Assembly (NCBI GenBank): GCA_963662285.2
Contig: CAXXMV010000008.1
Span: forward strand, 480,001-544,000
DNA length: 64,000 nucleotides
Origin: a bacterium
GTDB taxonomy: Bacteria > Hinthialibacterota > Hinthialibacteria > Hinthialibacterales > Hinthialibacteraceae
Reading direction: 5' to 3'
Position numbers and translations under genes: made by a program. Positions 18,992 through 59,865 of the stretch are shown here, piece by piece (position 1 is the first letter of the stretch; every line of letters begins with the position of its first letter). A model generated the notes under the pieces. It was given only the letters and a program-made list of their open reading frames with translations, was not told the origin of the DNA and did no database searches.

Positions 18992-20836
18992 TTAATAGAG
19001 TTCCCATACGCTAACTGCAGTATTAACCTCAAGATCAGACAGCATATCAACCCCAGCGTTAATCCCGACCGGCCGGATCACGGCGTACCTGACCCTGCTG
19101 ATATGAATCGCGCCTAATTCAGAGAACGAGAAGCGAACAGCTGCTTGAGGACCTTGGTTGACTCCACTGAAATTGACGTCATTAACAATCCATACCGCCG
19201 TCTTCCATTCATCTGTTCCGGTAATGACTTGCCTGACTTCTTCCGGGACAAACTTGAACTGTAGAGTTCCAAATACATTGGATTGATACACTTGCGGTCC
19301 AAAATCTTCATCAATCAAAGCCGGATCATCATAATAATCCACTGCGATTTTCAAAACTGCGTTAGGTTGATCGGATGGTCCAAAATGTTCATTAATAATT
19401 GAGAAATTTATATGACTGTCAAACGGATCGCTGCCATCGCCTAAAGCTGGACGGATCGCGGAACGTTTATCACCCGCTGGACCAATATCATCTTCAACTA
19501 AATATTCCTGGTCGCCGCCGCTGGTTCCATAATCCAAACCAAAGTTTAAAGCAGGATCATCAATATTGAATTCCGCATAAATTTCGTATGGATCAGGATC
19601 AAATGGATAAGCATCGGGAATAGGATCGACATTCTCGTAGACTCCAGAACTGCGAACCATACCCACTCTTACGCGTGAGACATATACCGGACCGCCAAAA
19701 CTAAAACGGGCCGCTCCTTGAGGAGTAACATTTACGCCCTTTAATTTGACATCAGGAACATACCAAACAGCTTCGCGCCATAAACCGGTTCCTGCAAGAA
19801 CAGTTCGTTTTGCCTCCGAGAAGAAAGCCAAAGCATCGCCAGCTGTAACATAGACTTCCGGTCCAAAAATAGTTCCGGCAAGCGCAGGATCATCATAATA
19901 CTCAGCAACAATCTTTACTTTCGAACTAGGTTGGCTGGTTGGTCCAAAATGTTCATCTAAAATCGCCCAGTTAACATAAATATCTTGCGTAGCATCAGAA
20001 CCATCATCAAAAGCCGGTCGTACAGCCTGGCGTTTATCGTCTGCAGGACCAATATCGCTGGACTCAATGGTTTCCTGGTCTCCACCAGTAACGCGATGTA
20101 GATCCAAGCCATTGATCACGCCATTATTGATATCCCATTCGGCCATAATGGCATAATCATCCGGATTAAACTCGACTACTTTAGTCGTATTAATATCTTC
20201 CGGTTCGCCGAATGCGCCTTCAGGACCAATAGCAATAGCGCGAATTATCAAGCCATTAGTTCCTCCTAAACGTATGGTGCCTCCATTTACTCCGCCGTAT
20301 GTGATAGTTCCTTGAGAATCGTCGTGCACGTTTCCAGCCCAGGCGCCGGAATTATCAACCCGGAAGAGACGCCATTCAAATTGGTCAGTCACAGATTCAA
20401 AATTGAATCCATCAACGTAATTCATATAATCGCCAGGCAGCGTACCCAGCAGGAAACCCATATTGTCACGCTTGGATTCAGCATTGGCGAAATACTGCAC
20501 CAGAACATCAATCACAGGCAAGTCAGGTAATAAAAAATAAAGTTCATCAGCAATATTGAAATAGTTGGCAACCGACTTTTTAGCGTCTTTACCGGCGATT
20601 GAAATGTCTTCCGTTACCTGATCGCCACCAGTCAGGATAAGAATCGTTTCAGAAAATAGATTCCCTTGACCTGAAGGAATAGCTCCATAAAGAGCATCAT
20701 CCGCGCACCAATAATGCACATCCGCATCGAAATCAGTAGTTGGCGGCCACTGATCGATATCTTGTGAATATGCTGGCGTATAACCAATTAGTAATCCAAC
20801 AACCATGAAACAGACAAAAATTTTATTCATATTCAA
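18992..20836 (-). CDS. Secreted acidic protein with three internal beta-rich repeats and C-terminal WELY tag
   Basis: Signal peptide; three GGDQ-starting repeats, the last two with EHFGP/YYDDP/W.A.W; ends TAVSVWELY; AGGAGG RBS. Confidence 0.75.
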   Translation of the reverse strand: MNMNKIFVCFMVVGLLIGYTPAYSQDIDQWPPTTDFDADVHYWCADDALYGAIPSGQGNLFSETILILTGGDQVTEDISIAGKDAKKSVANYFNIADELYFLLPDLPVIDVLVQYFANAESKRDNMGFLLGTLPGDYMNYVDGFNFESVTDQFEWRLFRVDNSGAWAGNVHDDSQGTITYGGVNGGTIRLGGTNGLIIRAIAIGPEGAFGEPEDINTTKVVEFNPDDYAIMAEWDINNGVINGLDLHRVTGGDQETIESSDIGPADDKRQAVRPAFDDGSDATQDIYVNWAILDEHFGPTSQPSSKVKIVAEYYDDPALAGTIFGPEVYVTAGDALAFFSEAKRTVLAGTGLWREAVWYVPDVKLKGVNVTPQGAARFSFGGPVYVSRVRVGMVRSSGVYENVDPIPDAYPFDPDPYEIYAEFNIDDPALNFGLDYGTSGGDQEYLVEDDIGPAGDKRSAIRPALGDGSDPFDSHINFSIINEHFGPSDQPNAVLKIAVDYYDDPALIDEDFGPQVYQSNVFGTLQFKFVPEEVRQVITGTDEWKTAVWIVNDVNFSGVNQGPQAAVRFSFSELGAIHISRVRYAVIRPVGINAGVDMLSDLEVNTAVSVWELY

Positions 20837-21185
20837 TACCTCCTTTGGAATTGATCTTTCTACTATCCCATATATGAAGATAAAAAGATAGATTTATATG
20901 AAAATAATACGATAAAGCATTAGAATCGCATAGGCAAAATAGTTTCTATATATTTTAGAAAGAGGCAAAAACCTCCTAGTTAGTTGTTATGGAAAAACGT
21001 TAAGTACAGACCAATAAATGCCGAAAATAGAAGAAGATAAATCATCTTTACTTATTTTGGTACGTAATGTGCTTTTATATACTTTATATTTAATTGAGTT
21101 TTATTTGTTATCGGGTTGAAGATTACGAAGCGTCTTTACGATATTACAATGAGAAGCGCTTTAGAAACGAGGCATCGTGGTAATC

Positions 21186-21611
21186 ATGAAAATTCTAATA
21201 CACGAAACAGATCAAGATATCCGCAAACTTTACAAGGCGATTTTTTCTCCTTTCCCTGTACAGTTAACGTTCACCAATGAAGCTCGGGAAACATGCATTA
21301 AAGCAGACCGTTCCAATTACGATCTGGTTATGATGGACATTGAATTTCCCACTATGGAAGGTCTTGATATCGCACGCAATATGGTGCAAAACCATCCTGA
21401 GCAACCTTTATTATTGGTATCATCTATCCCATTGCGTAAAAGCGATTTGGGAGCATGCGCTTATCACTCGCGCAGCGCCATCATGATGAAACCTTTTGAT
21501 ATAGGTAAACTACGCAGCATGATAGAGAAAATGCTCAAGCCAAAGCAATATCCGGAAACGGACGAAGACAGGTCATCGCTGGGTTTCTTCCAACCGGCAT
21601 TAGTTAATTGA
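21186..21611 (+). CDS. Single-domain response regulator (atypical acidic pocket)
   Basis: MKILIHETD, VMMDIEFP, LVSS, MKPF. Confidence 0.85.
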   Translation: MKILIHETDQDIRKLYKAIFSPFPVQLTFTNEARETCIKADRSNYDLVMMDIEFPTMEGLDIARNMVQNHPEQPLLLVSSIPLRKSDLGACAYHSRSAIMMKPFDIGKLRSMIEKMLKPKQYPETDEDRSSLGFFQPALVN

Positions 21612-21788
21612 CAGTTCCAAACGCCTTATACAGACTCTGATCCACATTTTAAAAGCCCGCTACGCACAGTAACGGGCGTTTTAATATCACTAGTTTAGGC
21701 TTCCGACGTTTTAAAGCGTAGGCAACGCTGGCGAGCGTCCCGCGACAGACGGGCGCTGAAAGCCGCTTTTAATTAGTGATCTGGTAAC

Positions 21789-23368: not shown

Positions 23369-24751
23369 TTATAACGTCCAACCTTTGCGATACTTGGGTT
23401 TAACCCATTTGTTGGCTTCGTCGTTATTGGTGAAACGGGCGTTGGGAGCATCCCAATACAGTTTCTGATCCGGGAATTTCAAGCAGAGGTTGCCCATTAC
23501 TATCCATTCGCTGAAAGGACCGGAATATTCGAAGTTCGAACCGGCGGGAGCGCCGCCCTTGCAAGCGCGAAGCCAGTCGATTTTCTGTTTTTGGTCATCG
23601 CCGTTCCCTGGTAAGCGTGGGATAATTTGTTGAGGCGCTTTGAAATCCTTCATGTGTTCGCCAGCAATCAAACGTGAGCCTTCGCCATAGGTTCCCGTCA
23701 CCAGGATGCCCTTGTCGCCGATGAAGAGTGAACCGCAGGAGCCTTTATCGATTTTGAAATTCTTAACGCCTTCCGGTATAGGAGGATGCAGATTGCCGTC
23801 GTACCAATACAGCGTTACCGGTGACATGTTTCCACGGCGTGGGAATTCAAAGCGAATTCTGGCTTCAGTCGGGAAGGTTTGATCATTGTTGCCTTTTTCA
23901 TGCAGGCACTCAACGCTTATAGGAGCGCCCAGACGCAAGGCCATGTTGGCTGGATCAAGTATATGACAGGCCATATCCGCTAAAGCGCCGCCGCCAAAGT
24001 CCCACCATCCGCGCCATTTGAATGGAGCGTATGCTGAGTTATAAGGACGATATATAGATGGTCCAATCCATGCATCCCAATTAATATTATCTGGCGCTTC
24101 TTCTTCTGGAAGAATTCCAGGTTTGCCATCTTCAAAGATGCCTTCGATGCCCTGCGGCCAGATAGGACGGTCAGTCCAGGCGTGAACTTCGCGGATATCT
24201 CCGGCGATGCCCGACCAGACCAATTCGCACATATCGCGAACGCCATCGCCTGAGTGACCCTGGTTGCCCATTTGGGTGGCAACGCCGTATTTTCTGGCGG
24301 CCAAAGTCAATTTGCGGGCTTCCCAGATGGTACGGGTCAATGGTTTCTGTACGTAAACATTGATGCCGCGTTCCATACACGCCATTGCTGCCACAGCGTG
24401 AACGTGGTCAGGAGTAGAAATTGTGCAGGCATCAATATTCTTTTCCTTGTCCAGCATTTGGCGGAAATCCTGATAAACCTTGGCGCCCGGGAATTTCTTG
24501 ATCGAGCCATTGGCCATTCTCTCATCAGGATCGGCCAGGGCAATAACGTTTTCGCCCAGATCGCCGCATTGGCCGATGTCTGACGATCCCTTGCCGCCTG
24601 CTCCAATAGCAGCCATGTTCAATTTTTCGTTAGGAGATTTGTATCCCAGCCGTTTCAGGCTTGGAACTGATTTTGTGGTTGCGCAACCAGCCATTGTCGC
24701 CGCAGCGCTTCCCATTAAAAAAATACGCCGGGAAAGTTTTGATTCACTCAT
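23369..24751 (-). CDS. Tat-exported Gfo/Idh/MocA oxidoreductase (copy 1)
   Basis: SRRIFL signal with MAGC lipobox; IGAGGKG, STPDHVH, VQKPL, GALADMACHILD. Confidence 0.92.
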   Translation of the reverse strand: MSESKLSRRIFLMGSAAATMAGCATTKSVPSLKRLGYKSPNEKLNMAAIGAGGKGSSDIGQCGDLGENVIALADPDERMANGSIKKFPGAKVYQDFRQMLDKEKNIDACTISTPDHVHAVAAMACMERGINVYVQKPLTRTIWEARKLTLAARKYGVATQMGNQGHSGDGVRDMCELVWSGIAGDIREVHAWTDRPIWPQGIEGIFEDGKPGILPEEEAPDNINWDAWIGPSIYRPYNSAYAPFKWRGWWDFGGGALADMACHILDPANMALRLGAPISVECLHEKGNNDQTFPTEARIRFEFPRRGNMSPVTLYWYDGNLHPPIPEGVKNFKIDKGSCGSLFIGDKGILVTGTYGEGSRLIAGEHMKDFKAPQQIIPRLPGNGDDQKQKIDWLRACKGGAPAGSNFEYSGPFSEWIVMGNLCLKFPDQKLYWDAPNARFTNNDEANKWVKPKYRKGWTL

Positions 24752-26705: not shown

Positions 26706-27851
26706 TTATGGAAATATCTTAATAACAGGCTGCGTCAGGTTTCCTCCGCCATTATCCCATTTTATCAGACCGCTGGCGGCTTTATAGCCACTTAATTGAG
26801 TCAGGGATTTCGCCAAAGATGTGCGCTTTAATCCACTGGAACGAATAGACTTAATGATTAACTGCGCCGCATCATTGGCGTAAGTTGCAGAGAAAGTCGG
26901 GCGCTCAGCGAAGCGGCGTGAATATGAATGCTCAAACCGTAAATAAGGGCTGCATTTAGATGCATGTTCAAAAGGTTCAACCACATACAAAGTTCCAGAA
27001 TATTGGCTTGATATGACCTCAGCCTTAAATCCGGGAATCCAGGGAATGAAAAGCGGGCAATGCACCTTCCGCTTTACAAGCGAATCAATCAAACCAGCCA
27101 ATTGATTCGCTTGCAGACGAATCACCAGAGCATCCGGTTTGAACGAGTTTATACGTTCTATAATTTCATCAAATGATTGCAGATCAGCGTCAATAGTGAA
27201 ATGGAAAACTGGTGGAATATGTTTCTTATGCAAAGCCTCTTGTAATTCATCAGAAGAATATCTGCCGTCATGTTCGGTTGAAGATATCAAACCAATTCTT
27301 TGCAGTGTTTTGAGCTGCGCGATTTGACTAATCAACAGATCCGCTTGCACCCGGTCATCAGGAGGCAGACGAAATATCCAGGGCAGATTGATATGAGTTA
27401 ATGATGGATCAGAGGCAATAGGAGAAACCAACGGAACCCAAGCCTTGGTAACCACTTGCTGCGCGATATGGGTTGCATCTCCATTAATGGAGCCGATAAC
27501 CGCCCAGACGCGATCCTGGTAAACCAACTTGATCATCTCTTTTGAACCGGCGCCCCAGGGATCATCGGCCCAGCGTTGCACAACAGAAAAAGGTACGGAT
27601 TGATAACCACCCTCAGCATTGGCCTGTTCAATAGCCAGAGAAACTCCCTGTATTATGGCTCGCGCTACACCGCCGTCTTGCTGATATGGAGAGAATAGCC
27701 CGATTTTAATTGATTTAAGTTTTTCCACATCAGCAGTTTGGGTCTCCGGCCCGGAGAAAGGCTGGGGCGCGTCAAGCATACGATAAGGTTCTTGGGCGTT
27801 AATATTTATAGAGAGAAGAATGAAGATGGAAAAACAGATAATTGATCTCAT
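26706..27851 (-). CDS. LivJ-like (type I periplasmic-binding fold) substrate-binding protein
   Basis: Signal peptide MRSIICFSIFILLSININA; IKIGLFSP, GVSLAIEQANAEGG, WIFRLPPDD, ATYANDA; start 27851 because the upstream extension is repeat DNA. Confidence 0.85.
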   Translation of the reverse strand: MRSIICFSIFILLSININAQEPYRMLDAPQPFSGPETQTADVEKLKSIKIGLFSPYQQDGGVARAIIQGVSLAIEQANAEGGYQSVPFSVVQRWADDPWGAGSKEMIKLVYQDRVWAVIGSINGDATHIAQQVVTKAWVPLVSPIASDPSLTHINLPWIFRLPPDDRVQADLLISQIAQLKTLQRIGLISSTEHDGRYSSDELQEALHKKHIPPVFHFTIDADLQSFDEIIERINSFKPDALVIRLQANQLAGLIDSLVKRKVHCPLFIPWIPGFKAEVISSQYSGTLYVVEPFEHASKCSPYLRFEHSYSRRFAERPTFSATYANDAAQLIIKSIRSSGLKRTSLAKSLTQLSGYKAASGLIKWDNGGGNLTQPVIKIFP

Positions 27852-27868
27852 GTTATGGGCTATTATAT

Positions 27869-28192
27869 TGTCTGAATCTGGATACCCAGGATGGGTGGCA
27901 AGTGCAGTGTGTTGTCTGCCCTTGATCGAGTCACCTCTTATTTCAAGAATTCCCACTAACAATCCACACTGAAGACGGTATCATAGGATTGATTTCGTTT
28001 ATCCATGATTATCTAATCAAGGGCAGAAAGGACAACGTCCTTGGCGCCCACGCCTCACCGACCCATCAAAAAACCACCCATTCAATCAGAAAGCCACTCT
28101 CCGCTATGTCAGGGAAAATTCAATAGGGGGATTTTTCTTGCCAGGGTGGTTATTATCAACCCTCTCCTAGCCTCTCCCAATCTTGGGAGAGG
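27869..28192. repeat. Composite repeat cluster (families D, B inverted pair, A fragment, C)
   Basis: tgtctgaatctggatacccagg (27869); B arms 27893-27926 and 28016-28049; cgcctcaccgacccatc similar to 52030; tcaaccctctcc...gggagagg (28156-28192). Confidence 0.75.
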
Positions 28193-28208
28193 GATGATTA
28201 TTCTACAT

Positions 28209-29600
28209 TTAATTCTTCGAGACCTTGGTTTTTTGCTCTCCGAAGATGTCTTGGTATGAGTAGAACTTAAACTCTCTATCTTCTGCTATAGCCAGGGAGG
28301 AAGGGCTGATGTTATTGAAAATCTGGTCGAACTCTTTTAGCCCGGTGACGCCATTATATTGAGTCACTTTGGCTAATTCATCGCGGATCAGGGCGCGGTT
28401 GAGTCCGGCGCGTTCGATAGCGTCAATAATCATGGTCATGCCATCATAGGCATGGGCGGCGTAGGTTTCGGGAGCATCGCCAAAACGGTCGCTGAATGAT
28501 TTGACGAAATCGGTATATTTGGAGTCGCGGCTTTCTGGATCATAGGGATATCCGGCGATGACATTGCCGATGTTCTCTCCGGCCATTTCAAAGAATTTAG
28601 GTGATACCATACGGTCGCTGCCCAGGAATAGTTGATTCATACCCATAGCCCGCATTTGCTTAAGTATTAGAGCGGATTCTTCGCAGTCGCCATAAGTTAT
28701 TACTGCTTCTGGTTTTAGCGCTTTGATACGCTCAAGTTGTGGAGTGTAATCTGTATCGCCTACTTTGTAATTAAGTTCAGTTAAGAATGGATGACCGGAA
28801 CGGGTGGCGGCGTCGCGGAACTCATCGATGCTCATGCGTCCATAACGGTTATTAGCCCGCAAGGCGGCGACGCGGGTATACCCCAGTTTTTTGAAGACGT
28901 AATCAGCCATGAAATAGCACATCTGACGGTCATCGGTGATGCATCTAAATACCCAGGGGATATTGGTTTCAATAAAAGTGGGATCAGTATCGCCGGTATT
29001 CATCATGGGAATTTCAGCCTTCAAAGCCACCCGGATAGCAATATGGCTGTTAGCGCCATCAATTGATCCGAGTATAGCCCAGACATTATCTTTATAGGCC
29101 AAGTGGACGATTTCACTGCCGCTGGCGCCCCAAAGGCCGTTGTCGTTGCGGACTTTCAATTCATAGGGAACGCCGCTTCCTCTGTAACCACCGTTTGCAT
29201 TGGCGTGTTCAATGGCAAGACGGGCGCCTTGCATCATTTTGTGGCCTAAGGGTTCTTCATGAGACGCCCCGCCAGTAGCGACCGAAACGGTTTTCATGAT
29301 GGGACCTAAAAAGCCGATTTTGATCGAATCGAGATTCTTTGGCTCAGGAATATGACGCCCGTATCCCCGGTATTGTAATGGTTCACGGAAAAAACGGCGG
29401 TATGGTTCGGTGAATTCACCATAGGGGAAATATTCATCAGGCGTACGGCCATAGTTTTTCTTTAATAATTCAGGATCAGCCTTTTGAACCTTGGTAGTTC
29501 CATGAATTCTCGAATCGTCTAAAACTGTATCATCGCTGGCGATAGCGCTGCTTCCCCCGAAGAGCGCCATGACTAAAAACATCCCGATTATCTTTTTCAT
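28209..29600 (-). CDS. LivJ-like substrate-binding protein with N-terminal extension
   Basis: Signal peptide; IKIGFLGP, GARLAIEHANANGG, WVFRCITDD, AAHAYDG, GVTG; paralog of 26706-27851. Confidence 0.88.
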   Translation of the reverse strand: MKKIIGMFLVMALFGGSSAIASDDTVLDDSRIHGTTKVQKADPELLKKNYGRTPDEYFPYGEFTEPYRRFFREPLQYRGYGRHIPEPKNLDSIKIGFLGPIMKTVSVATGGASHEEPLGHKMMQGARLAIEHANANGGYRGSGVPYELKVRNDNGLWGASGSEIVHLAYKDNVWAILGSIDGANSHIAIRVALKAEIPMMNTGDTDPTFIETNIPWVFRCITDDRQMCYFMADYVFKKLGYTRVAALRANNRYGRMSIDEFRDAATRSGHPFLTELNYKVGDTDYTPQLERIKALKPEAVITYGDCEESALILKQMRAMGMNQLFLGSDRMVSPKFFEMAGENIGNVIAGYPYDPESRDSKYTDFVKSFSDRFGDAPETYAAHAYDGMTMIIDAIERAGLNRALIRDELAKVTQYNGVTGLKEFDQIFNNISPSSLAIAEDREFKFYSYQDIFGEQKTKVSKN

Positions 29601-29876: not shown

Positions 29877-30998
29877 TTACTTCAATCCAGCGTAATAACC
29901 TTTGCCGATGCCGTGCGCCAGGCCGTGGCCGGTTCCGATCCAGACATCGTCGCCCTGAAATTCTGAACAGATTATGAAATGATTGGGCAACGATAGTTTG
30001 GTGGGAACCGAACGGATTATTTTATCCTGCACCATCAAGTGAGCCGTCCAATGCTCTGCGTCATCCGCGTCGCGTTTATAGGTAACCCATGTATCGGATT
30101 CAAAATCCGCTAAGACCGCTAAACCCAGGTCGGTACTGCAATAACAGGTATTTTTGTCGCGTCCGACGGCGAAATTGATAAAATCGCTGATTAAACCGCT
30201 ATCAACCTTGGTATACCCCCGCCAGTGACGACCGTCATATCGGCTCAGGCCGAAATAGGTTGAAGCCCACATGATATCATCGCGAAATGAAACCGATGTG
30301 GTGATTATGTGGATCAAGCCATCATCGCGGTATAGATCTATTTCCATTTCATGATCGGGATCGCGATGGGCGTCCCAGTGTTTGGTTTCGACGTCCCATT
30401 CGAGGATTCCGCCGCCCCATACTGCTACATATACTCTTTTGCCGTGTGAATCAATACTGTAACACCAGATCTCTTCCATAGGCGCATTCTGATCGGTGAA
30501 GATTTCCCATTCGCCAGTGACGGTATTGTATGAACTGACTCCGGCGGTGGTGGCCACCCATAGTTCATCATCCAGGATAGTCAAAGCATAGACCACGTCA
30601 TTAACTAAACCGCTGTTTAATTGATGGAAATGATCGAAGCGACCGCCGCTGAAGCGGGCTACTCCGCCGCCAAAAAGCCCTAGCCAGACATCCCCGGTTT
30701 TCTGACTGACCGCGATGCCGCTGACTACCTTAAATGGCAGACCGTCTTTTTCCTGCCATACTTTCCACTTACCGTCTTCTAAAAGAGCCAGACCATCTTC
30801 AGTTCCAACCCACAGACGGTCGCCATCGGCTCTCAAGGAGAAGATATGGTCATTGGGAAGTCCGTTTTCTTCTGCGTAGAAAGTTTCCCACTCGGTATAA
30901 ACATAGGGTTCACCCGCCAATTGAGGAATTTCTTCACCCGCGCACAAAAGAAGCGGAAGTCCAGCGAATAATATAATTATTAATGTAAGACGCGTCAT
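29877..30998 (-). CDS. Secreted beta-propeller protein (two-component regulator propeller-like, no kinase)
   Basis: Signal peptide; repeats GLPND.I...LWVGT..GL, SGLVNDVVY...LWVAT..GV, SGLISDFI and LPNHFI...VWIGT..GL. Confidence 0.8.
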   Translation of the reverse strand: MTRLTLIIILFAGLPLLLCAGEEIPQLAGEPYVYTEWETFYAEENGLPNDHIFSLRADGDRLWVGTEDGLALLEDGKWKVWQEKDGLPFKVVSGIAVSQKTGDVWLGLFGGGVARFSGGRFDHFHQLNSGLVNDVVYALTILDDELWVATTAGVSSYNTVTGEWEIFTDQNAPMEEIWCYSIDSHGKRVYVAVWGGGILEWDVETKHWDAHRDPDHEMEIDLYRDDGLIHIITTSVSFRDDIMWASTYFGLSRYDGRHWRGYTKVDSGLISDFINFAVGRDKNTCYCSTDLGLAVLADFESDTWVTYKRDADDAEHWTAHLMVQDKIIRSVPTKLSLPNHFIICSEFQGDDVWIGTGHGLAHGIGKGYYAGLK

Positions 30999-31015
30999 AA
31001 TTTAACTCCCCCACT

Positions 31016-33871: not shown

Positions 33872-33887
33872 TACTTTTCCTCCAAAT

Positions 33888-35531: not shown

Positions 35532-35583
35532 ATTTGCTCCCCGAAAGAAATGCTATAACTCAATGATAATAAGATTATCGCTA

Positions 35584-35669
35584 TCAACCCTCTCCTAACC
35601 TCTCCCAGTCTTGGGAGAGGAATCCTTTGCCACCCAAGCGTAGGGTGGGTCGCGCTTCACTGACCCACC
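35584..35669. repeat. Family C palindrome followed by a GTAG-type REP (family A)
   Basis: tcaaccctctcctaacctctcccagtcttgggagagg and gtagggtgggtcgcgcttcactgacccacc. Confidence 0.75.
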
Positions 35670-35892
35670 AAAGATGCACCTTGTTATCTCTCAAAATCCC
35701 TCTCTATAGAAATTTTTATACGTAATGGGATTCATTCTATCCTATTTGATACACCGGCTAGAAGCCGATGCTCCCCACTCTATGATTCTCCCCGTTTCAT
35801 TCTCCTCTCCTGAGTTGTGTCCGGAGAGGAAACCAGGGGGAGAGGGGATTTGGTTGCCCGAAATTACCAGGTTGTCAGGTATAGATAAAATC

Positions 35893-41359: not shown

Positions 41360-43852
41360 TTATCGGAACAATTCCCAATTTTCATAGGATGATGCAGGTA
41401 GATTATCCGAATATGTCAGTATTTCTTTACCTGTATAATAACCAAAGAGATACTCAGCATAGAATTTCCACTCCACTTCATCATCATCCGAAGATACCTG
41501 ATAAAAAGCAAAATTGCCATATTCACGGTCGCCATTTTCAGTCATCAATAGACTCGATAATAGACCGACTGTTTCCTCGGTTACGTTAAATAATGCTTCA
41601 ACCGACTGTTCTGCATCAGGAGCGGACGGCCAACCCATGTCTTCCATCATCAAGACATACATCCATAAGCATTCATAGGCTGCAACATCAAAGGCCCGCG
41701 GCTCATTATCAATGTGCGTAGCGATATCGTTGATAACAACACAGGGTGGAAGGCTTAAATGGTGCGTCTGGTCCACTCCAATTATGGAGGCGGTAAACCG
41801 TAGTTGACTGGCAATCTCCGCAGATTCCGGGTTTTCTAAAATACCGTTATTGAGCGCAGTGGAATCAGTCCCAAACCAGCGGAACTTATTCAAAGAAGAG
41901 TTATCGGGAATAGCAGAGAAAATGTCTGCTATTTCATCATAAGCAATAACAACAATAGCTGTTTTCATGATATTCTGGTTCTGGATGTTATTCTTGAGTT
42001 GATCTACAACGGGGGAGAAATCCGTCGTTCCGATATCATACGAGATGCTTTCGCCAAATTGTCCGCCTAGTTCTTCAAACGCCGTTTTCAAGTTGGAATA
42101 TAAACCTGATCCATAAGTATCATTGCGGTATAGCGCATTGATCTTTGAGTATCCCTGATCTTTAATCAACGCCGCAATCGCTGTGACCTGTTTGTAGTCG
42201 TTCATTACCAGGCGGAAAATGTTATCCTTTTTTGATAGCGTAGTGGCAGTACTGGAAGGAGAAAGAAGCATTATTCCATTTTCCTCAACAAAAGGAGCAA
42301 CTTTTTCCAAAGCGGAACTGGTTACAGGGCCAATGAAATAACGAATGCCCTGGGCGTACATTTCCTGCATCTTTTGCAAGGCCGTATCAGGATCAGTCGC
42401 AGTATCTTCAACCACCAGTTCAACGCTTGAACCGGGCGTATGAACGCGCTTAAAAATTTCGTTAACATGAAGGCTAGCCAATTCCAATGATTTATTGATC
42501 AATTGTCCACCTTCCGCATAATCACCGGATAGAGGCATCAAAGCGCCAATTTTAAGGTATTTATCCAGATTGTCTGGAATATATATCTCGCTGGAGAATT
42601 TCTCACGAACAATGTTGCCGCCAAATAGATAGCAAGAATAGGAACCGGCCGGGGTCCATTTTTGATCTTCTAAATATTGATAAAATCCATATATGGCATT
42701 TATAGAGTCGCCATTTTGATCGAAAAATGGATAACCTTTAAATCCCATAAAAATTGTGGATATTCGAATCAGTTCATTTTTCAAATCATAAGTTCCCTCG
42801 AACTGAGAAATCCCAGCCATCCAGAGTGCATCATAAGAAGCGGATTCGAGAGAAGTCATTTGATAATTAGTTTTTGATATGATCTTGGAATATAAGAGTT
42901 CATCGGTTAATGAATAATGAAAGAAGGGGTAAAACCGCGCGTCAGATGTAGACATTGAGGCCGTAAATTCGACCTGCGCGGCAAAAGCAGAAGCGATGTC
43001 ATCTTGACTAATGATTTCATTCCTGGCAGTTCCATCAGCTCCAAACCAACGAACAGCTTTGAGAATATCTTGGCTGGAAGCGGCTTTAAGTATTTCTGCT
43101 ACCTCATCAAATGAAACAACAACGATTCCTACCTTGGCTTCAGCATTTTCCTGTTGAATAGTATCAACTACATTTGTAAGTTGAGCAATCAAAGTTTGAT
43201 AATCAGTAGTTTGCACATCATAAAAAATCGGTTCTGATAGAGTACCTATTTCTGCGTAACTTGATTGAAACGCAGCGGCGAAGTCCTGACCATAATTATC
43301 ATTTCGCGAAATAAGGACGATATGATCGACATCTTCGGACTGAATAAACTTGGCTAAAGCAACTGACTGCAGGCTATCGTTTGTGCAAAGCCTGAAAATG
43401 TTATCATCCAGCGCCAGAGAGAGCGCCGTGCTGGTTGGTGATATCAAAACGCAGTTATTCTCATCCGCAAACGGTTTGACGCGCAACAGCGCTTCACTCG
43501 AAAAAGGACCTACAAATATTCGGAATCCTGCCTGATATAAAGATTGCAATTTGGTTAATGCAGTTTCCGGGTCTGTACCAGTATCTTCAATTACCAAATT
43601 AATGTGAACCTTTGGATACTCACGCTCAAAGTCTTCCAGTGCAACTTCCAATGTGGCTTTTGCAGCATTCCCTAAATTAACGAGAGAACCTGTTAATGGT
43701 ACTAAAGCGCCGATTGATAGCGTTGTTTCTCCTGGTGGAGCGGGAAAAACGACTTGAGAATTACTCGCGCCCGGTAATCCGATTAAAACGGTAAGCAGAA
43801 TCGGTAAAAAAAGCATACCCATTCTATTGTTCCATCTGCTGCATAAATTCAT
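41360..43852 (-). CDS. Secreted protein with two tandem LivJ-like binding domains and C-terminal WELFR tag
   Basis: Signal peptide; duplicated IGAL.PL.G...EDT.TDP.TAL...GP..S...SP.ST...IFRL..ND...RND.YG...RWFG.D; ends SSYENWELFR. Confidence 0.85.
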   Translation of the reverse strand: MNLCSRWNNRMGMLFLPILLTVLIGLPGASNSQVVFPAPPGETTLSIGALVPLTGSLVNLGNAAKATLEVALEDFEREYPKVHINLVIEDTGTDPETALTKLQSLYQAGFRIFVGPFSSEALLRVKPFADENNCVLISPTSTALSLALDDNIFRLCTNDSLQSVALAKFIQSEDVDHIVLISRNDNYGQDFAAAFQSSYAEIGTLSEPIFYDVQTTDYQTLIAQLTNVVDTIQQENAEAKVGIVVVSFDEVAEILKAASSQDILKAVRWFGADGTARNEIISQDDIASAFAAQVEFTASMSTSDARFYPFFHYSLTDELLYSKIISKTNYQMTSLESASYDALWMAGISQFEGTYDLKNELIRISTIFMGFKGYPFFDQNGDSINAIYGFYQYLEDQKWTPAGSYSCYLFGGNIVREKFSSEIYIPDNLDKYLKIGALMPLSGDYAEGGQLINKSLELASLHVNEIFKRVHTPGSSVELVVEDTATDPDTALQKMQEMYAQGIRYFIGPVTSSALEKVAPFVEENGIMLLSPSSTATTLSKKDNIFRLVMNDYKQVTAIAALIKDQGYSKINALYRNDTYGSGLYSNLKTAFEELGGQFGESISYDIGTTDFSPVVDQLKNNIQNQNIMKTAIVVIAYDEIADIFSAIPDNSSLNKFRWFGTDSTALNNGILENPESAEIASQLRFTASIIGVDQTHHLSLPPCVVINDIATHIDNEPRAFDVAAYECLWMYVLMMEDMGWPSAPDAEQSVEALFNVTEETVGLLSSLLMTENGDREYGNFAFYQVSSDDDEVEWKFYAEYLFGYYTGKEILTYSDNLPASSYENWELFR

Positions 43853-48089: not shown

Positions 48090-48432
48090 TGTTTTGGTTC
48101 TCCCTTAGTTTCTATAAATTCCATTACATTGGCCTATTCAATCATATCACAATTGACTCGGAAAAGTTGAGTTCTAATGCCTTCAAATGCAAAATAGATA
48201 CGGCTTGTTAGAATAACCTAATTTATAAAAAATCTGTATCAGGTAAAAAAGGATACCTATCTCATCAAGACCTTGTTGTGCTTATTGATTTCTTTTAATA
48301 TAAATGGATCATTACGGTTCTATCCCAATCGTGTACGGATTAACACATTCTTATTAATAGGTGTTCAATTCGTATAAGCAGGTATATGAAAAAATCTCCT
48401 GCAAAAAAACATCTTCCAAAAAGGGGAGCATT

Positions 48433-49815
48433 ATGAGTGAATCAAAACTTTCCCGGCGTATTTTTTTAATGGGAAGCGCTGCGGCGACGATGGCCGGTTG
48501 CGCAACTACCAGTTCCATTCCGAGCCTGAAACGGTTGGGATACAAATCTCCTAACGAAAAATTGAATATGGCTGCTATCGGAGCAGGCGGCAAGGGCACG
48601 TCAGATATTGGCCAATGCGGCGATTTGGGCGAAAACGTTATTGCGCTAGCCGATCCAGATGCGAAAACAGCTAATACTTCGATCCAGAGATTCACTGGCG
48701 CTACTGTTTATCAGGATTTCCGCCAAATGCTGGACAAGGAAAAGAATATTGATGCCTGCACAATTTCTACTCCTGACCACGTTCACGCTGTGGCAGCCAT
48801 GGCATGTATGGAACGCGGCATCAATGTTTATGTACAGAAACCATTGACCCGTACCATCTGGGAAGCCCGCAAATTGACTCTGGCCGCCAGAAAATACGGC
48901 GTCGCCACTCAAATGGGCAACCAGGGACACTCCGGCGACGGCGTTCGCGATATGTGCGAATTGGTCTGGTCGGGCATTGCTGGCGATATCACTGAAGTTC
49001 ACGCCTGGACTAACCGTCCAGTATGGCCTCAGGGCATCGAGGGCGTCTTTGCTGATGGTAAACCTGGACTGCTTCCTGAAGAAGATATTCCAGATAATAT
49101 TGATTGGGATGCATGGATTGGACCTGCGAAATATCGTCCTTACAACTCAAAATACGCTCCATTCAACTGGCGTGGATGGTGGGACTTCGGCGGCGGCGCA
49201 CTAGCAGACATGGCCTGCCATATTCTCGATCCAGCCAACATGGCCTTATGTCTCGGCGCTCCAACAAGCGTTGAGTGTCTCTATGAAAAAGACAACAACG
49301 ACCAGACCTTCCCCAATGAAGCCAGAATTCGCTTTGAGTTCCCACGTCGTGGAAGCATGCCAGCTCTAAAACTATATTGGTACGACGGCAACCTGCATCC
49401 TCCGATACCTGAAGGCGTTAAAGACTTCAAAATCAGTGATGGCTCCAGTGGTTCAATCTTCATCGGCAGCAAAGGCGTTCTGGCGACAGGAACCTATGGC
49501 GGCGGCTCACGCTTGATTGCCGGCGAAAACATGAAAGATTTCCAAAAACCACAACAAATCCTCCCACGCTTACCAGGGAAGGAAGACGACTACAAACAGA
49601 AAATCGACTGGCTGCGCGCATGCAAGGGCGGCGCTCCCGCAGGCTCGAACTTTGAATATTCCGGCCCCTTCAGCGAATGGATTGTAATGGGCAACCTGTG
49701 CTTGAAATTCCCCGGCCAGAAACTGCTGTGGGATGCTCCCAACGCACGCTTCACTAATAACAGTGCAGCCAACAAATGGGTTAAACCAGATTACCGCAAA
49801 GGTTGGACATTGTAA
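48433..49815 (+). CDS. Tat-exported Gfo/Idh/MocA oxidoreductase (copy 2)
   Basis: Same length (460 aa) as 23369-24751, with 55 substitutions by manual count; start ATG 48433 after GGGGAG. Confidence 0.92.
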   Translation: MSESKLSRRIFLMGSAAATMAGCATTSSIPSLKRLGYKSPNEKLNMAAIGAGGKGTSDIGQCGDLGENVIALADPDAKTANTSIQRFTGATVYQDFRQMLDKEKNIDACTISTPDHVHAVAAMACMERGINVYVQKPLTRTIWEARKLTLAARKYGVATQMGNQGHSGDGVRDMCELVWSGIAGDITEVHAWTNRPVWPQGIEGVFADGKPGLLPEEDIPDNIDWDAWIGPAKYRPYNSKYAPFNWRGWWDFGGGALADMACHILDPANMALCLGAPTSVECLYEKDNNDQTFPNEARIRFEFPRRGSMPALKLYWYDGNLHPPIPEGVKDFKISDGSSGSIFIGSKGVLATGTYGGGSRLIAGENMKDFQKPQQILPRLPGKEDDYKQKIDWLRACKGGAPAGSNFEYSGPFSEWIVMGNLCLKFPGQKLLWDAPNARFTNNSAANKWVKPDYRKGWTL

Positions 49816-52275: not shown

Positions 52276-53757
52276 CTAAGCATCCGAATGCAGCAGACGC
52301 TTTAAGTGGCGCCCCGCCAGGAATTTGAAGGTATGCCAGGTGTGTCTGGGGCGGAGAATTAGGCGTTTGAATTGGCGGAAATCCTTGAATGGGCGAATAG
52401 TTTTATGCCAGTCCCACTCGTTGTACGCCATGCGTAAAGCGCGTTCCAGGTCTTCGCCGCTGAGGGCGTCCGTCCTGACAACAGCGGTGGTTCCGCCATC
52501 GTATTTCGACCAGTCGTGAGTTAGCAACTTGCCTTCTTCCTCCAACATCCGGTAGAAAGTCGAACCGGGGAATGGAGTCATGATGGAGAATTGGATGGTT
52601 TCGGGATTAAGGCGTTTGGCGAAATCAATGGTTTGACGCACGGTTTCCCAGGTCTCGCCGGGAAGCCCGAAACTGAAGGTCAAATGCTGGTTGATGCCCA
52701 ACTCGCGGGTGGCGCAGACCATCTCTTCCACTATTTTGAGGTCAAGACCCTTCTTGGCGTTATCGACCAGTTGCTGCGAACCTGATTCAACGCCGTACTT
52801 GATGCCAACCAGACCAGCGTCCTTCATAGCCGCCAGGGTTTCACGGTCAGTGGTATCAGCGCGCGCCATGGCAGCCCAGGGCAGATTGAGGTTGCGCTTC
52901 TTGATCTCATCGCAAAGCGCCAGTAGACGTTTCTTGCCAATGTTGAATGTGTCATCATCAAAATAGAACGAACGGAAGCCGTATTTTTCCACCATGGCTT
53001 CGATCTCGTCGACTACGTCTTTAGGATCGCGGGTGCGGTAGCGGTTGTTGCCATACATTATCTGCGGCCATGCGCAAAAGATGCACTGGAACGGGCAGCC
53101 CCGCGAAGCCCACATCTGCAAACTCGGTTCGGGAATCCCGCCAGGTAAATCCCAATAGCTGTGCATGGGAAGCTGGTCGCGCGAAGGCCAGGGGATGGTA
53201 TCCAAATCATCAATCAGTTCGCCGCGCTCCGTCTGATGAGCGACGCCTTGATCATCGCGATAAACCAGGTTTGGTATTGTTGAATAATCGCTGTTGGATT
53301 CGATGGCTTGGATTAATTGATGTAGAACAAAATCATATTCACCCTTGAGGACAAAATCCACCAGGGGATTCTCGTCCAGAAACTGGGTACGATACATGTC
53401 GACATGGATGCCGCAAAATATGATACGCGTATCAGGGCAAGTGTCTTTGATTTTCTGCGCCTGACGTAGGTCCGTATCGAATGAAGCGGTAGAGATTTCC
53501 AAAACTGTAATGTCCGGCTTAAAATCAATAGCGCGTTGGATAAAATCAGCTTCGCATATTCTCTCGGCTATGCCATCTACTAAACAGCAATCATAACCGG
53601 ACTTCTCCAGAATTGCGGTTGCGTAAGCCAAATAGAAAGGAAATGGAAGATAACGGGCGCCCTCTTCTTCAAAATGCGGCCAGCGCGAACCTGCGCGTAC
53701 GCCATAGTAACCTTTTTTAAACCAAGGGCCATTGCCAAGAAAAATTTTAATAGACAT
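52276..53757 (-). CDS. B12-binding-domain radical SAM protein (HpnJ-like)
   Basis: RAGSRWP, PFYLAYA, GEYD, SRGCPFQCIFC, FDDDTF, GVESG, GLPGET, TPFPGS. Confidence 0.88.
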   Translation of the reverse strand: MSIKIFLGNGPWFKKGYYGVRAGSRWPHFEEEGARYLPFPFYLAYATAILEKSGYDCCLVDGIAERICEADFIQRAIDFKPDITVLEISTASFDTDLRQAQKIKDTCPDTRIIFCGIHVDMYRTQFLDENPLVDFVLKGEYDFVLHQLIQAIESNSDYSTIPNLVYRDDQGVAHQTERGELIDDLDTIPWPSRDQLPMHSYWDLPGGIPEPSLQMWASRGCPFQCIFCAWPQIMYGNNRYRTRDPKDVVDEIEAMVEKYGFRSFYFDDDTFNIGKKRLLALCDEIKKRNLNLPWAAMARADTTDRETLAAMKDAGLVGIKYGVESGSQQLVDNAKKGLDLKIVEEMVCATRELGINQHLTFSFGLPGETWETVRQTIDFAKRLNPETIQFSIMTPFPGSTFYRMLEEEGKLLTHDWSKYDGGTTAVVRTDALSGEDLERALRMAYNEWDWHKTIRPFKDFRQFKRLILRPRHTWHTFKFLAGRHLKRLLHSDA

Positions 53758-55030: not shown

Positions 55031-55921
55031 CTATTCAAATAAAGCCCAATTATCCAGTCCGGCGTCTGCTAGTTTGGTCATTTCGTAGGTTCCTGAAAAG
55101 GTTTTGGATACCAGATTGGAAACGTCTACGGTGAATTCCCAGGTTCCTGCTATATGAGTATTATCATCATTGCCCTGCCCTGTACCACTCAGGGTGAAAG
55201 TTGTTTCACCAACTATGGGAAGTTCAACAGGTTCAGTAGTATAGGTAAAATCAAATTCTTTCTGTTGTGAATAAGAGAAAAGTCCGGCCAACGCCAGCAT
55301 TTGGGCATTAGAAGACCCGGTTGGAGCATAGTTGCCCATCAGGGTTCCATCGGGATTCATGGTCACTTCGCCGGTCCAGTCGATATTGGCGCCAGTTAGA
55401 GTAATTTCCCACACGCCAGCCAACGCTGCTCCGGGAGTTCCGGGATCAAAACCATCTCTGGTGAGGATGAATGATTTTCCATCTGAATCGCTAATGTTGC
55501 CATCTGGAGTAGTATAAGTTTCTAAATTCTTCCATACGCCGACCACCATATTAGCGTCATCTGATATCATGCCTGATCCAGTCACAACAAGTTTAACAGA
55601 TATGGCGCCATCTGCATCCAAGGCTGTTCCATTGCCAACTCCGGTATATAAAAGTTGTCCATCTGCCAGAGCGGTAAACTTACCAGTATGACCCACGTCA
55701 AAAATATACTCGGTTTCACCAATTATGTACGGATAGGTTTCCGAAAAAACAGTATTACCATTGTTACTAATAGTAACTATACTTTGTTCGCCTCCCTCGA
55801 TATCCGTCTCTAGATTCCAATCGCCCTCAAGTTGATCAACCTGAGCCCAAACAGGCGACAGAGAAATAAGAATCCCTGCGCAAACCATCATAAGAAAAGC
55901 ATTGCGTTTGTTCAGATACAT
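55031..55921 (-). CDS. Secreted protein with two beta-barrel-like (lipocalin/avidin-like) repeats and C-terminal WALFE tag
   Basis: GGAGG RBS, signal peptide ending VWA; LEGDW...VGVW and LAGVW...AGTW repeats; ends AGLDNWALFE. Confidence 0.7.
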   Translation of the reverse strand: MYLNKRNAFLMMVCAGILISLSPVWAQVDQLEGDWNLETDIEGGEQSIVTISNNGNTVFSETYPYIIGETEYIFDVGHTGKFTALADGQLLYTGVGNGTALDADGAISVKLVVTGSGMISDDANMVVGVWKNLETYTTPDGNISDSDGKSFILTRDGFDPGTPGAALAGVWEITLTGANIDWTGEVTMNPDGTLMGNYAPTGSSNAQMLALAGLFSYSQQKEFDFTYTTEPVELPIVGETTFTLSGTGQGNDDNTHIAGTWEFTVDVSNLVSKTFSGTYEMTKLADAGLDNWALFE

Positions 55922-56289: not shown

Positions 56290-57390
56290 TCAATATGGAA
56301 AACGGTATTGCAGCGGCGAGTGAGTTTGGTTTCTAGAGATATTACTCAGACCTTCGGATAGATAATCCAATAGGCTGCTTTCTCGTTTTTTGCGTTCAAT
56401 AACGGTCGGTTCGCCGCTGATTCCAGACATTTCAGCTGCAAGTTTAATGGCGTCTTCCAGCGATCCCAGTTTATCCACCAAACCCACCTTCAAAGCCTGC
56501 CGTCCGGTGTAGACTTTTCCTTCAGATACGGCGCGGGTGAAAGCAAGCAGCGTTTCCTTATCCGGGGTTGGATCAATTTTCACAGCAGTAGTAGTATCAT
56601 CAATATCACTACTGGCCGATAAGACAGTATCAGAAACAACGAGACCAGTCATGTCGTCATCAGGAAGCGTCCGCTGATATTTTTCAACAATATTCACAAC
56701 ATCCTGGGAAAGCGGGTATTTCACTTCTGTAGCGTCATCCCACTTATTCATCAGATGGGAAAACGGTTCTTTACGTCCTTTCATGACGGCTTCGACGAAC
56801 TGCTCATAGGTATCATCGATCACGCCCTGCATCATCTCACGTTCTTTATAGGAGAGACCTCTTTCCATTGAACCGAAATCCTTGTATTCGCCTGCTTTAA
56901 CTGTGTCGTAGGTAAAACCGATTTTCTCCATCAGTTCTTTGGCTACGGGAAACTTGGCGTAAACGCCGATGCTTCCCGTCATCGAACCGGCGGCGGAAAC
57001 GATCTGATCGGCGTTGCATGCCACATAATACCCTCCTGACGCAGCCACAGATCCGAACGACGCCACTACAATTTTTCCGTATTCCTCTTGGGCTTTAACC
57101 AGCGCCTCATATAAATCCTGCGAAGGACCGACCGCGCCGCCGGGACTTTCCACGCGCAGCACAATTGCCTGGACGGATGAATCTTCCTGATAATCCTGCA
57201 CCTGATCAATCCAATCCTCTGCATCGTAGATAATGCCTTCAACCCGCACCAGGGCTATTCGTTTTGATCCAAGTAAATTAGGCGTCGTGCCTTGCAACAC
57301 AAAAACCATCATCGTTGCGAATAATCCAACCACCACAATTACTACAATCAAGAAGGTTAAAAGAAGCAATATTCCAGTGCTCTTTTTCAT
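56290..57390 (-). CDS. sppA: Signal peptide peptidase SppA (36K type, S49) with internal insertion
   Basis: LRVESPGG, AASGGYY, TGSIGV, KAGEYKD, GKVYTGRQA..GLVD.LG. Confidence 0.93.
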   Translation of the reverse strand: MKKSTGILLLLTFLIVVIVVVGLFATMMVFVLQGTTPNLLGSKRIALVRVEGIIYDAEDWIDQVQDYQEDSSVQAIVLRVESPGGAVGPSQDLYEALVKAQEEYGKIVVASFGSVAASGGYYVACNADQIVSAAGSMTGSIGVYAKFPVAKELMEKIGFTYDTVKAGEYKDFGSMERGLSYKEREMMQGVIDDTYEQFVEAVMKGRKEPFSHLMNKWDDATEVKYPLSQDVVNIVEKYQRTLPDDDMTGLVVSDTVLSASSDIDDTTTAVKIDPTPDKETLLAFTRAVSEGKVYTGRQALKVGLVDKLGSLEDAIKLAAEMSGISGEPTVIERKKRESSLLDYLSEGLSNISRNQTHSPLQYRFPY

Positions 57391-57600
57391 AATCGATTTC
57401 AACCGTATCCTTAAGTATTGATTTTTATTTATAATACTATGTTCTTAATATTATTAGAACGATTCTTAAAATTAAGTGGATTAAAATCCCCAAATATGAG
57501 ACTTTACGCCGATACAACGCTTCTCATAAACTTTTGTGATCCGCTATAATCGAAATAATATAGTGATATCCTAAGTGTTAATTAAGAATTGAGCAATAGC

Positions 57601-58659: not shown

Positions 58660-58731
58660 AAAACGGTTTTCATGGTCAGAATAATTTTGTGGTTTTTTGA
58701 TGGGTCGATAAGGCTAACTCATCAACATTGG

Positions 58732-59865
58732 CTAGTGCAAGTCCTCATAAAACGATGCGGCGGATTGAGTTGATTTGCTTTGTTGGAACAACCATTGATA
58801 TAACCCAGGATAGGTAAGTGCATGCATAACGCAATCATGACCAACATCGGGAAAAACAGTGTATTTAACATTGCCTCCCAGCGCCCGTAGATTATTAACG
58901 GTTTCAGCATCCCACGCTTCAGGGACAACACTGTCTTTGGCGCCATGAAAGGCCCAGACCGGGACGGATACCAGAGGTTCCAAATTAACCGCTGGTATCG
59001 AATAACCTGCATCAGTAGCCGCCACTCCGGCGCCGCAGATGGGAACCGCAGCGGCGATCAATTCTGGATAAGCGCTGGCAAAACTCCATGTGCCAAATCC
59101 TCCCATGCTGCCTCCAAATATATAAATCCGCTTTGTATTAATACTTAATTTCGATGTTAATTCAGTAACTGTTTCATTCAAGCGACGATCCGACCACACT
59201 GCACTATAACAATATGGAATCACAATAACGCATTCAAATAATTGAGGAAATTTTTCCCGATTTGATGGATTACTTACCAATTGCAGCGGCCCTCCATTTC
59301 TTAGAACATTCATTTCTTCTGATAGAGGGCCTCCATGCAACCATATAATTATAGGCCATTCTTTTTCTATGGTCTTGTAATCCTCAGGTACATATAACCA
59401 ATAGTTATATGATAATTCAGAATTAATCGGGACTTGTTCCCCTGGAGTAGGTTTGGGATATAACAAAATCTTGGTTCCAGTAATCTCTACTTCATCCACT
59501 TTGCCGGAAAAAACTCCATCCCGGTCGGCATTGGTCGGCGACTTAAGAAAATACTTAATGGTTTTTTCTCCAGTAAATTCGGTTAAATTCCATGTGATTT
59601 TTCCGTCAACTCTGGAGCCGTCATTCATTACTCGAGTGATCGTCCAACCTACCGGTGGTTGTTCTATTACGGTGATAGAACCTGGATCGCCTGATATAGT
59701 GATCGAGACGATAATGGGTTCTCCCTGGAGAAAATATTCATCGATCGCGCCTGACAATGTTCGCGTTGCTTGTACGTCGCCTTGGGCAGTAATTTCTACG
59801 AAAAAAAATGTCAGGAAAAATGTAATTACCAGAAAATGGATTCGCATCATAATATCCTTTTGCAT
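58732..59865 (-). CDS. Secreted alpha/beta-hydrolase (predicted esterase/peptidase) with N-terminal Ig/cohesin-like domain
   Basis: Signal peptide; YWLYVP, IWLHG, GGSMGGFG nucleophile, FHGAKDSVVP, GHD; ends SAASFYEDLH. Confidence 0.85.
   Translation of the reverse strand: MQKDIMMRIHFLVITFFLTFFFVEITAQGDVQATRTLSGAIDEYFLQGEPIIVSITISGDPGSITVIEQPPVGWTITRVMNDGSRVDGKITWNLTEFTGEKTIKYFLKSPTNADRDGVFSGKVDEVEITGTKILLYPKPTPGEQVPINSELSYNYWLYVPEDYKTIEKEWPIIIWLHGGPLSEEMNVLRNGGPLQLVSNPSNREKFPQLFECVIVIPYCYSAVWSDRRLNETVTELTSKLSINTKRIYIFGGSMGGFGTWSFASAYPELIAAAVPICGAGVAATDAGYSIPAVNLEPLVSVPVWAFHGAKDSVVPEAWDAETVNNLRALGGNVKYTVFPDVGHDCVMHALTYPGLYQWLFQQSKSTQSAASFYEDLH

Follow-up and report, generated by a model that had tools for sequence, protein, structure and literature searches.

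A short tryptophan-containing C-terminal tag on unrelated exported proteins of a Hinthialibacterota bacterium: a candidate sorting signal

Why should exported proteins that share no fold end in the same few residues? The question is raised by a 64,000-nucleotide stretch of DNA from the bacterial lineage Hinthialibacterota (contig CAXXMV010000008.1, positions 480,001 to 544,000; hereafter the window, with a G+C content of about 44-47%), in which three minus-strand genes encode proteins ending in TAVSVWELY, SSYENWELFR and AGLDNWALFE, directly before the stop codon. A first-pass annotation had proposed these peptides as a new protein-sorting signal, and the peptides and coordinates that it gave proved exact when checked against the sequence. 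Read slightly further upstream, the three proteins end in ...NTAVSVWELY, ...ASSYENWELFR and ...DAGLDNWALFE. We refer to them as families 1, 2 and 3; their genes and relevant parts, all read from the sequence, are the following (aa, amino acids).

18992..20830, minus strand: family 1 gene, 612 aa from the ATG at 20830 (614-aa open reading frame, ORF)
18992-18994, minus strand: stop codon of family 1
18995..19021, minus strand: tag TAVSVWELY
20762-20830: signal-peptide region of family 1
41360..43822, minus strand: family 2 gene, 820 aa from the ATG at 43822 (830-aa ORF)
41360-41362, minus strand: stop codon of family 2
41363..41392, minus strand: tag SSYENWELFR
43742-43822: signal-peptide region of family 2
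55031..55921, minus strand: family 3 gene, 296 aa
55031-55033, minus strand: stop codon of family 3
55034..55063, minus strand: tag AGLDNWALFE
55841-55921: signal-peptide region of family 3

All known tails, 20 from six families with each family weighted equally, were combined into the consensus [ST]-[ST]-[VIA]-x-x-W-[ED]-[LI]-[YF]-x(0-1)-COOH, which is nearly identical to the one drawn earlier from the window. The tag is thus about nine residues long. With the tryptophan set at position 0, its preface consists of [ST] at -5, [ST] or another small residue at -4 and [VIA] at -3. In all 20 tails the W-x-[LI]-[YF] core stands zero to two residues from the end, and in 11 of them a non-aromatic residue follows the aromatic one, the observed ends including Y, F, FR, FE, YE, YN, YQ, YP, YR and FH. 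A separate alignment (A2) comprises 14 tails and leaves out P0003, whose tail is the same as that of P0002, together with the deviant P0008 and P0010. By our estimate, the tag holds about 15-18 bits of information, too few for an E value of 10 or less to be within reach in 5.8 billion proteins.

Could so short a likeness have arisen by chance, from compositional bias, or as a side effect of some repeat or terminator in the DNA where genes end? The motif was, after all, defined once the data had been seen. In six-frame stop-to-stop segments of at least 100 aa, the window has three matches to the pattern W[EA]L[FY], all of them the C-termini in question. The relaxed pattern W.[LIVM][FY] has nine matches in the 18,626 residues of 43 plausible window genes, selected manually among the listed ORFs; three of these matches sit no more than two residues from a C-terminus, where 0.036 would be expected, and none of 20,000 shuffles reached three C-terminal matches. 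A looser C-terminal pattern additionally matched two shadow ORFs (53 and 30 aa) that we regard as non-genes.

For comparison beyond the window, a scan of genome contigs with an MnmE query supplied 13 loci, three of them close (57-60% identity; L001, L002 and L003). In loci L004-L013, about 130 kb from unrelated phyla, the strict pattern matched one of 406 raw segments. This match, in the Cytophagales locus L009, would speak for chance, but it has neither a signal peptide nor the S/T-S/T-hydrophobic preface. Moreover, the tag recurs independently in L002 and in database homologues, as described below. At the DNA level, the 3' ends of the tagged genes show no similarity to one another beyond their codons, and the hairpins downstream are of the ordinary terminator-like kind. 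The absence of common DNA excludes an origin from a repeat element, and a repeat or terminator was rejected as the source of the tag, the likeness being confined to the protein level. Chance or a DNA element is thus hardly credible as an explanation, and we consider it effectively refuted.

What, then, are the proteins that carry the tag? Family 1 has no match among Pfam or NCBIfam models (the NCBIfam search of the window proteins extended to an E value of 1). Its AlphaFold model, built with 30 homologues, reaches a mean predicted local distance difference test (pLDDT) of 86.9 and consists of three beta jelly-roll domains; the neighbours in the PDB are jelly-rolls resembling carbohydrate-binding modules (CBM) and of the reelin type, with the low template modelling (TM) scores that are expected for a multidomain query. 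Family 2 contains two tandem type-I periplasmic binding domains of the Peripla_BP_6/ANF_receptor kind (Pfam E 1.7e-63, two stretches). Family 3 is modelled as two eight-stranded beta-barrels (mean pLDDT 72.7) whose structural matches are streptavidin and tamavidin, with TM scores (target) of 0.56-0.59 for one barrel. The best score in the ESM Atlas, 0.85, falls below the 0.9 mark for more than a lead; the avidin likeness that it gave is a hint, in agreement with the streptavidin and tamavidin matches. The earlier suggestion that the tag sits on unrelated folds is therefore borne out by jelly-rolls, binding-protein domains and avidin-like barrels.

Both models, those of families 1 and 3, show no secondary structure after the last domain strand. 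In family 1 this strand spans residues 579-588 of 614, the tail of about 25 residues is unstructured, and residues 609-614 have a pLDDT under 50. Family 3 has its last strand up to residue 286 of 296, and the pLDDT of residues 288-296 is likewise under 50. As far as the models go, the tail is predicted to be no part of any fold.

The tail is nonetheless kept. Family 1 has 117 representative homologues at E <=0.001, and the tag occurs only in the two closest, P0012 (86% identity, ..TEVNLWELY) and P0013 (52%, ..TSIGQWSLY). Family 2 has three homologues, two of which retain it: P0131 (69%) ends in ..SSHANWELYR and P0132 (43%) in ..SSTGQWELYP. All 11 database sequences of family 3 (45-100% identity) preserve the tryptophan while the neighbouring residues vary, and nine of the 11 conform to [ED]-[ST]-x-hydrophobic-x-x-W-x-[LVMI]-[FY]-x(0-1). 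Because the tag is kept among homologues of all three families, the tail is, to judge from these alignments, under selection.

If the tag were a peculiarity of three gene families, it should not reappear on others. Locus L002, 21 kb long, encodes two further tagged proteins, for which NCBIfam was searched at E up to 0.1, as for P0013 and P0168.

L002:7535-8332: L002a, signal-peptide protein (signal-peptide region L002:7535-7600), tail SLSSHAAGWDIYE, no Pfam or NCBIfam match
L002:8512-9660: L002b, signal-peptide protein, tail PAGTSVVHWELY, no Pfam or NCBIfam match

The two tails close with ..SSHAAGWDIYE and ..GTSVVHWELY. L002b adjoins MnmE, as family 1 does in the window, and the two proteins are not homologous. 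No tag was found in L001 and L003, which carry mostly cytoplasmic or ribosomal genes. A further case is P0168, a signal-peptide protein with 38% identity to a window hydrolase described below, which has an extra C-terminal domain of about 200 residues and the tail KKSTIGDWELYN, with the full preface (..KSTIGDWELYN). Finally, one metagenome-assembled genome (MAG) at NCBI, with locus tags C4527 and the unconfirmed label Candidatus Omnitrophota bacterium, has tagged members of families 2 and 3. The tag is thus spread over at least two genomes, those of the window and L002, and over other public contigs including one named MAG. Families 1-3, the two L002 proteins and P0168 make six families or architectures that bear it, and the three examined structurally have three different folds. 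Judged by its sequence and distribution, the tail is a real, non-random, conserved and lineage-restricted C-terminal tag.

A fourth window protein had been put forward as a weaker case.

58732..59847, minus strand: alpha/beta-hydrolase (esterase or polyhydroxybutyrate-depolymerase-like, from family matches), with signal peptide
58735-58764, minus strand: tail SAASFYEDLH, without tryptophan (sequence)
58732-58734, minus strand: stop codon (sequence)

Its three closest orthologues (48-55% identity) share a lineage-specific tail of about 12 residues, ending in ..PSAVTFYENFR, ..QSAVLYSMDLK and ..PSAVKSGTDM, and the C4527 MAG also has an orthologue lacking the tryptophan. The window hydrolase and P0135 align in register with the tag as S(-5) A(-4) [AV](-3) .. 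Y E [DN] [LF] [HR]: the preface, the spacing and the glutamate are kept, tryptophan and leucine are lost, and a tyrosine occupies the tryptophan position. P0147 aligns only with a shift of one residue, and in P0160 the aromatic is lost. Among the best 120 of 1,668 hydrolase homologues, which include P0168, the more distant ones inspected (P0136-P0170) lack roughly the last ten residues, P0168 and a few divergent sequences excepted. The signal peptide and the in-register tail of this fourth case stand, and its membership is less clear: with the tryptophan absent, SAASFYEDLH may be a variant or decayed tag and is a doubtful member.

Is the tag linked to export? Signal peptides are predicted throughout, by our own heuristic of an N-terminal hydrophobic segment; in families 1-3 alike, a positive n-region precedes a hydrophobic stretch (15-20 residues) and a small-x-small cleavage site. 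In a census of 60 hand-picked genes from the window and L002, the tag was found in five of the 28 genes with such a segment and in none of the 32 without one, in keeping with the earlier statement that this ending is absent from the cytoplasmic proteins. Multi-pass membrane proteins are counted among the 28, as is at least one false positive, the L002 MnmE read from an upstream start. By our own reading of the N-termini, the window encodes about 13 Sec-type and six Tat-type signal peptides. Only three proteins of the Sec type bear the tag, which hence distinguishes some exported proteins and not all of them. Extrapolated from these three of about 13 and from two of four in L002, it would be present on perhaps a fifth of the Sec-exported proteins. 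In this small sample, then, the tag sits on unrelated families, at the extreme C-terminus, and on exported proteins only.

The tagged proteins also tend to have a glutamine after the predicted signal-peptidase site (..AYS|QD, ..SNS|QV, ..VWA|QV, ..VLA|QS, ..SYS|QG and ..CDA|QE, with L002b as an exception), and all 11 family 3 sequences place one just after the hydrophobic region. The same glutamine is seen in untagged exported proteins of the window (the C25 peptidase at 5880, the hydrolase at 58732 and the binding protein at 26706) and in many family 1 homologues outside the lineage. It recalls the 'Q-rule' for Bacteroidetes signal peptides, which its authors describe as Bacteroidetes-specific (PMC5837995).

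What might such a tail do? We favour, tentatively and with nearly as much belief as doubt, the reading that it is a lineage-specific short linear signal on soluble Sec-exported proteins, read by an envelope component that directs or holds its cargo, most likely at the surface. A tagged protein would first cross the inner membrane by the Sec route and lose its signal peptide. A dedicated component of the envelope would then bind its flexible C-terminal peptide as a linear motif, and would direct the cargo to its destination or hold it there, either through transfer to an outer-membrane translocon or through tethering. This destination would most likely be the cell surface or the outer membrane. 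Five residues ahead of the tryptophan, the S/T-S/T doublet might serve as a site of processing or attachment. Recognition, destination and processing are all steps that we infer. The cargo, comprising CBM-like jelly-rolls, binding proteins, avidin-like barrels and an esterase, fits an extracytoplasmic role in binding or degradation.

The best, though indirect, argument for sorting or anchoring comes from what replaces the tag elsewhere. An end-of-core motif (RVRYAVIRP-like) is present in 30 of the 117 family 1 homologues. The two tagged ones among these stop 24-25 residues past it. In 17 others the core is followed by a module of the form L.LSWP....LQ....W..V........[FY][FY]R[LA] plus 1-20 residues, which ends 74-100 residues past the motif in 16 and 319 residues past it in one. 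Two have Cys-rich, dockerin-like ends by pattern, to which P0014 and P0106 are added by eye, and the remaining nine are other endings or fragments. Neither of the two foreign modules has a Pfam or NCBIfam model. The comparison suggests that the tag fills a slot held elsewhere by larger C-terminal modules of the surface-attachment sort, and it is this equivalence that argues for a sorting or anchoring role.

Across all 117 homologues, 24 have the [FY][FY]R[LA]-type ending, the module measuring about 75 residues where it can be measured (P0015-P0090). This module, too, may serve sorting or anchoring in other lineages, as a domain not yet described. A relationship of the tag to the first strand of this '..W..V....[FY][FY]RL' module was considered and was not demonstrable.

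The dockerin-like ends at the same position also lend weight to the main rival, namely that the tail is a docking peptide, a 'mini-dockerin', which would bind a periplasmic or surface scaffold, partner enzyme or membrane complex and so gather the tagged proteins in one assembly, with no role in translocation or covalent anchoring. Tagged cargo consists mostly of binding modules, as docking would have it; the hydrophobic residue at -3, the tryptophan at 0 and the [YF] at +3 would fall on one face of a short helix, if the geometry that we assume is right; and the variable residues past the aromatic suit binding in a groove better than recognition of the carboxylate. Yet no scaffold candidate was identified, and a motif of four to nine residues would give a weak interaction unless it were multivalent. 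Dockerin itself, a Ca-binding, duplicated EF-hand-like segment (Pfam Dockerin_1), has no Pfam match in the tagged proteins; P0039, a distant family 1 homologue, has a weak, sub-threshold one. We rate docking as unlikely but a serious contender, one that the present data do not separate from sorting.

Exposed and unstructured in the models, the tag might instead be a signal for proteolysis or quality control, by which a periplasmic Prc/Ctp-type or PDZ protease or a stress sensor would set turnover or processing for a regulon of exported proteins. Tail-specific proteases and DegS-type PDZ domains do read apolar or aromatic C-termini, and an S49 peptidase gene (56290-57402) adjoins the family 3 gene. 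However, S49/SppA is a common housekeeping gene and the adjacency was seen once. PDZ ligands, moreover, need a fixed distance to the carboxylate, whereas the tag has zero to two residues past its aromatic, and a degradation tag kept for so long on six families, with an invariant tryptophan and a preface, is hard to explain. We therefore regard this possibility as quite improbable. Very improbable, in our view, is an intramolecular or self-assembly element, a tail that packs onto the protein it belongs to or is exchanged between copies, for instance to gate a ligand site or promote oligomerization, and that would recur as a handy hydrophobic cap. Several cargo proteins are indeed ligand binders with pockets (the avidin-like barrels and the binding proteins), but three folds would require three docking sites, the models, at very low confidence in this region, show no packing of the tail, and a preface [ST][ST][VIA] that is conserved from family to family suggests a single shared reader.

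Several observations weigh against the sorting signal that we favour. With 60 genes drawn from two genomes the census is very small, and with three of about 13 Sec-type proteins tagged the tail is no general requirement for export. Within families the tag can fail: P0133, a family 2 homologue of 34% identity, ends in ..SNVLSAPYLR and has lost the tryptophan, and in family 3 P0008 (..WCLLDG) and P0010 (..WESL) deviate after it. The low AlphaFold confidence of the tails is no proof of a free tail in vivo. Type-I binding proteins are classically periplasmic, and the fold of family 2 is as compatible with periplasmic retention or docking as with surface display. Since zero to two residues follow the aromatic, recognition would have to be independent of the exact free carboxylate, which is unusual for receptors of C-terminal peptides. 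Finally, no cognate receptor, peptidase or translocon emerged from our analysis, in which no search aimed at one was made.

A bolder claim would be that the tail is the substrate label of a new bacterial sorting pathway: about nine residues, with neither a transmembrane helix nor a folded domain, read in the manner of KDEL or PTS1 by a dedicated receptor or transpeptidase. This we hold as a possibility that is more likely to fail than to stand. If true, it would mean that a little-known group of uncultured bacteria has a new envelope machine and a different principle of recognition. The motif is a cheap regular expression that could flag the surface or secreted proteome in metagenomes and guide a search for the cognate machinery by phylogenetic profiling, and, if a receptor were found, it could be used as a very small tag. 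Should a whole-proteome count give a handful of carriers, the tail would be a curiosity of a few gene families.

The neighbourhood of the tagged genes contains further genes.

5880-11375, plus strand: untagged 1831-aa signal-peptide protein with Peptidase_C25 (residues 607-988) and CARDB (1296-1411) domains (Pfam)
16339-18157: FtsX/ABC pair

C25 is the gingipain/PorU family. The peptidase was considered as a PorU-like sortase and rejected, family membership being all that spoke for it. It, the S49 peptidase and the FtsX/ABC pair are neighbours only. A run of exported proteins at 29877-37860 on the minus strand comprises a Reg_prop beta-propeller, an FG-GAP/ASPIC protein, a protein with a hydrazine-synthase-alpha middle domain and a 951-aa multihaem cytochrome fused to a beta-propeller, and looks like an extracytoplasmic redox module. 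Two untagged Peripla_BP_6 proteins lie at 26706-29600. Paralogous Gfo/Idh/MocA oxidoreductases with Tat-type signals, at 23369-24751 (minus strand) and 48361-49815 (plus strand), are identical in their N-terminal 22 residues and nearly so in their C-terminal 25. Genes for B12-binding radical-SAM proteins occur within 2 kb of tagged genes both in the window (52276-53757, minus strand) and in L002 (5808-7268, plus strand); as these paralogues are only 29% identical, the adjacency is probably a coincidence. L002 also has two tandem, nearly identical and untagged signal-peptide genes (13183-15589; 400 and about 385 aa) and prepilin-type pseudopilin genes at 3793-4413 and 12595-13140.

How does the tag compare with C-terminal signals already described? 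The first-pass annotation had placed it outside LPXTG, PEP-CTERM, GlyGly-CTERM and MYXO-CTERM, the C-terminal domain (CTD) of type IX secretion (T9SS) and the beta-signal of outer membrane proteins, and we agree, as their defining features are lacking in the tagged proteins. To our knowledge, the prokaryotic C-terminal sorting signals that are well described all fall into two kinds, tripartite signals and folded domains. The substrates of sortase (LPXTG), exosortase (PEP-CTERM), rhombosortase (GlyGly-CTERM) and myxosortase (MYXO-CTERM) resemble the tag in that their signals are short, lineage-restricted and found on unrelated signal-peptide proteins. Tripartite CTERM signals combine a signature motif, a transmembrane helix and an Arg-rich cluster, according to a preprint (Haft, bioRxiv 10.1101/2023.06.07.544157); the tag, in contrast, has no hydrophobic helix and no basic cluster, and at most two residues follow it. 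No Pfam or NCBIfam model matches the tag, and no curated NCBIfam/TIGRFAM sorting domain was matched by the window proteins, L002a, L002b, P0013 or P0168.

The CTD of the T9SS shares with the tag its place at the C-terminus of Sec-exported cargo, which in that system crosses or is attached to the outer membrane, and the window does encode a large peptidase (5880-11375) of C25, the family of PorU. It is a folded Ig-like 3+4 beta-sandwich of seven strands (PMC11285876). The tag is far too short for this and no strand follows residue 286 of 296 in family 3 or 588 of 614 in family 1; nor did the window proteins match Por_Secre_tail or a TIGR04183-type model in Pfam and NCBIfam. The earlier remark that the start of the tag resembles the linker preceding such domains finds no support in our results. 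The beta-signal that outer membrane proteins present to the BAM machinery resembles the tag in being aromatic-rich, in lying at the extreme C-terminus and in occurring on exported proteins of a diderm-type organism. However, the tagged cargo has soluble folds, the barrels of family 3 being charged, soluble and avidin-like, and the hydrophobic residues of the tag lie at 0, +2 and +3 rather than alternating, often with a polar residue after the aromatic.

A W-x-L near the C-terminus of surface proteins also calls to mind the WxL domain. That domain is a folded C-terminal unit with two buried WxL motifs about 68-106 residues apart, and over 91% of its known sequences come from Firmicutes (PMC9772566). 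The tag differs in being a single W-x-L in an unstructured tail, with no Pfam WxL match; the only other W.[LIVM][FY] match in the tagged window proteins lies 456 residues upstream in family 1, families 2 and 3 having none. We found no description of the motif in open-access and bioRxiv full texts, a scope that leaves subscription journals and supplements outside.

In outline, as a C-terminal label carried by exported proteins, the tag would work most like the prokaryotic signals above; the closest parallels in form come from eukaryotes. KDEL/HDEL and the PTS1 peptide -SKL are made of a few terminal residues that occur on unrelated soluble proteins and are read by one receptor, and KDEL proteins combine an N-terminal signal peptide with the C-terminal one. 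These peptides belong to other kingdoms and machineries and sit exactly at the carboxylate, whereas the tag tolerates zero to two extra residues. In form, the tag nevertheless comes nearest to the KDEL and PTS1 peptides, an analogy that implies no homology.

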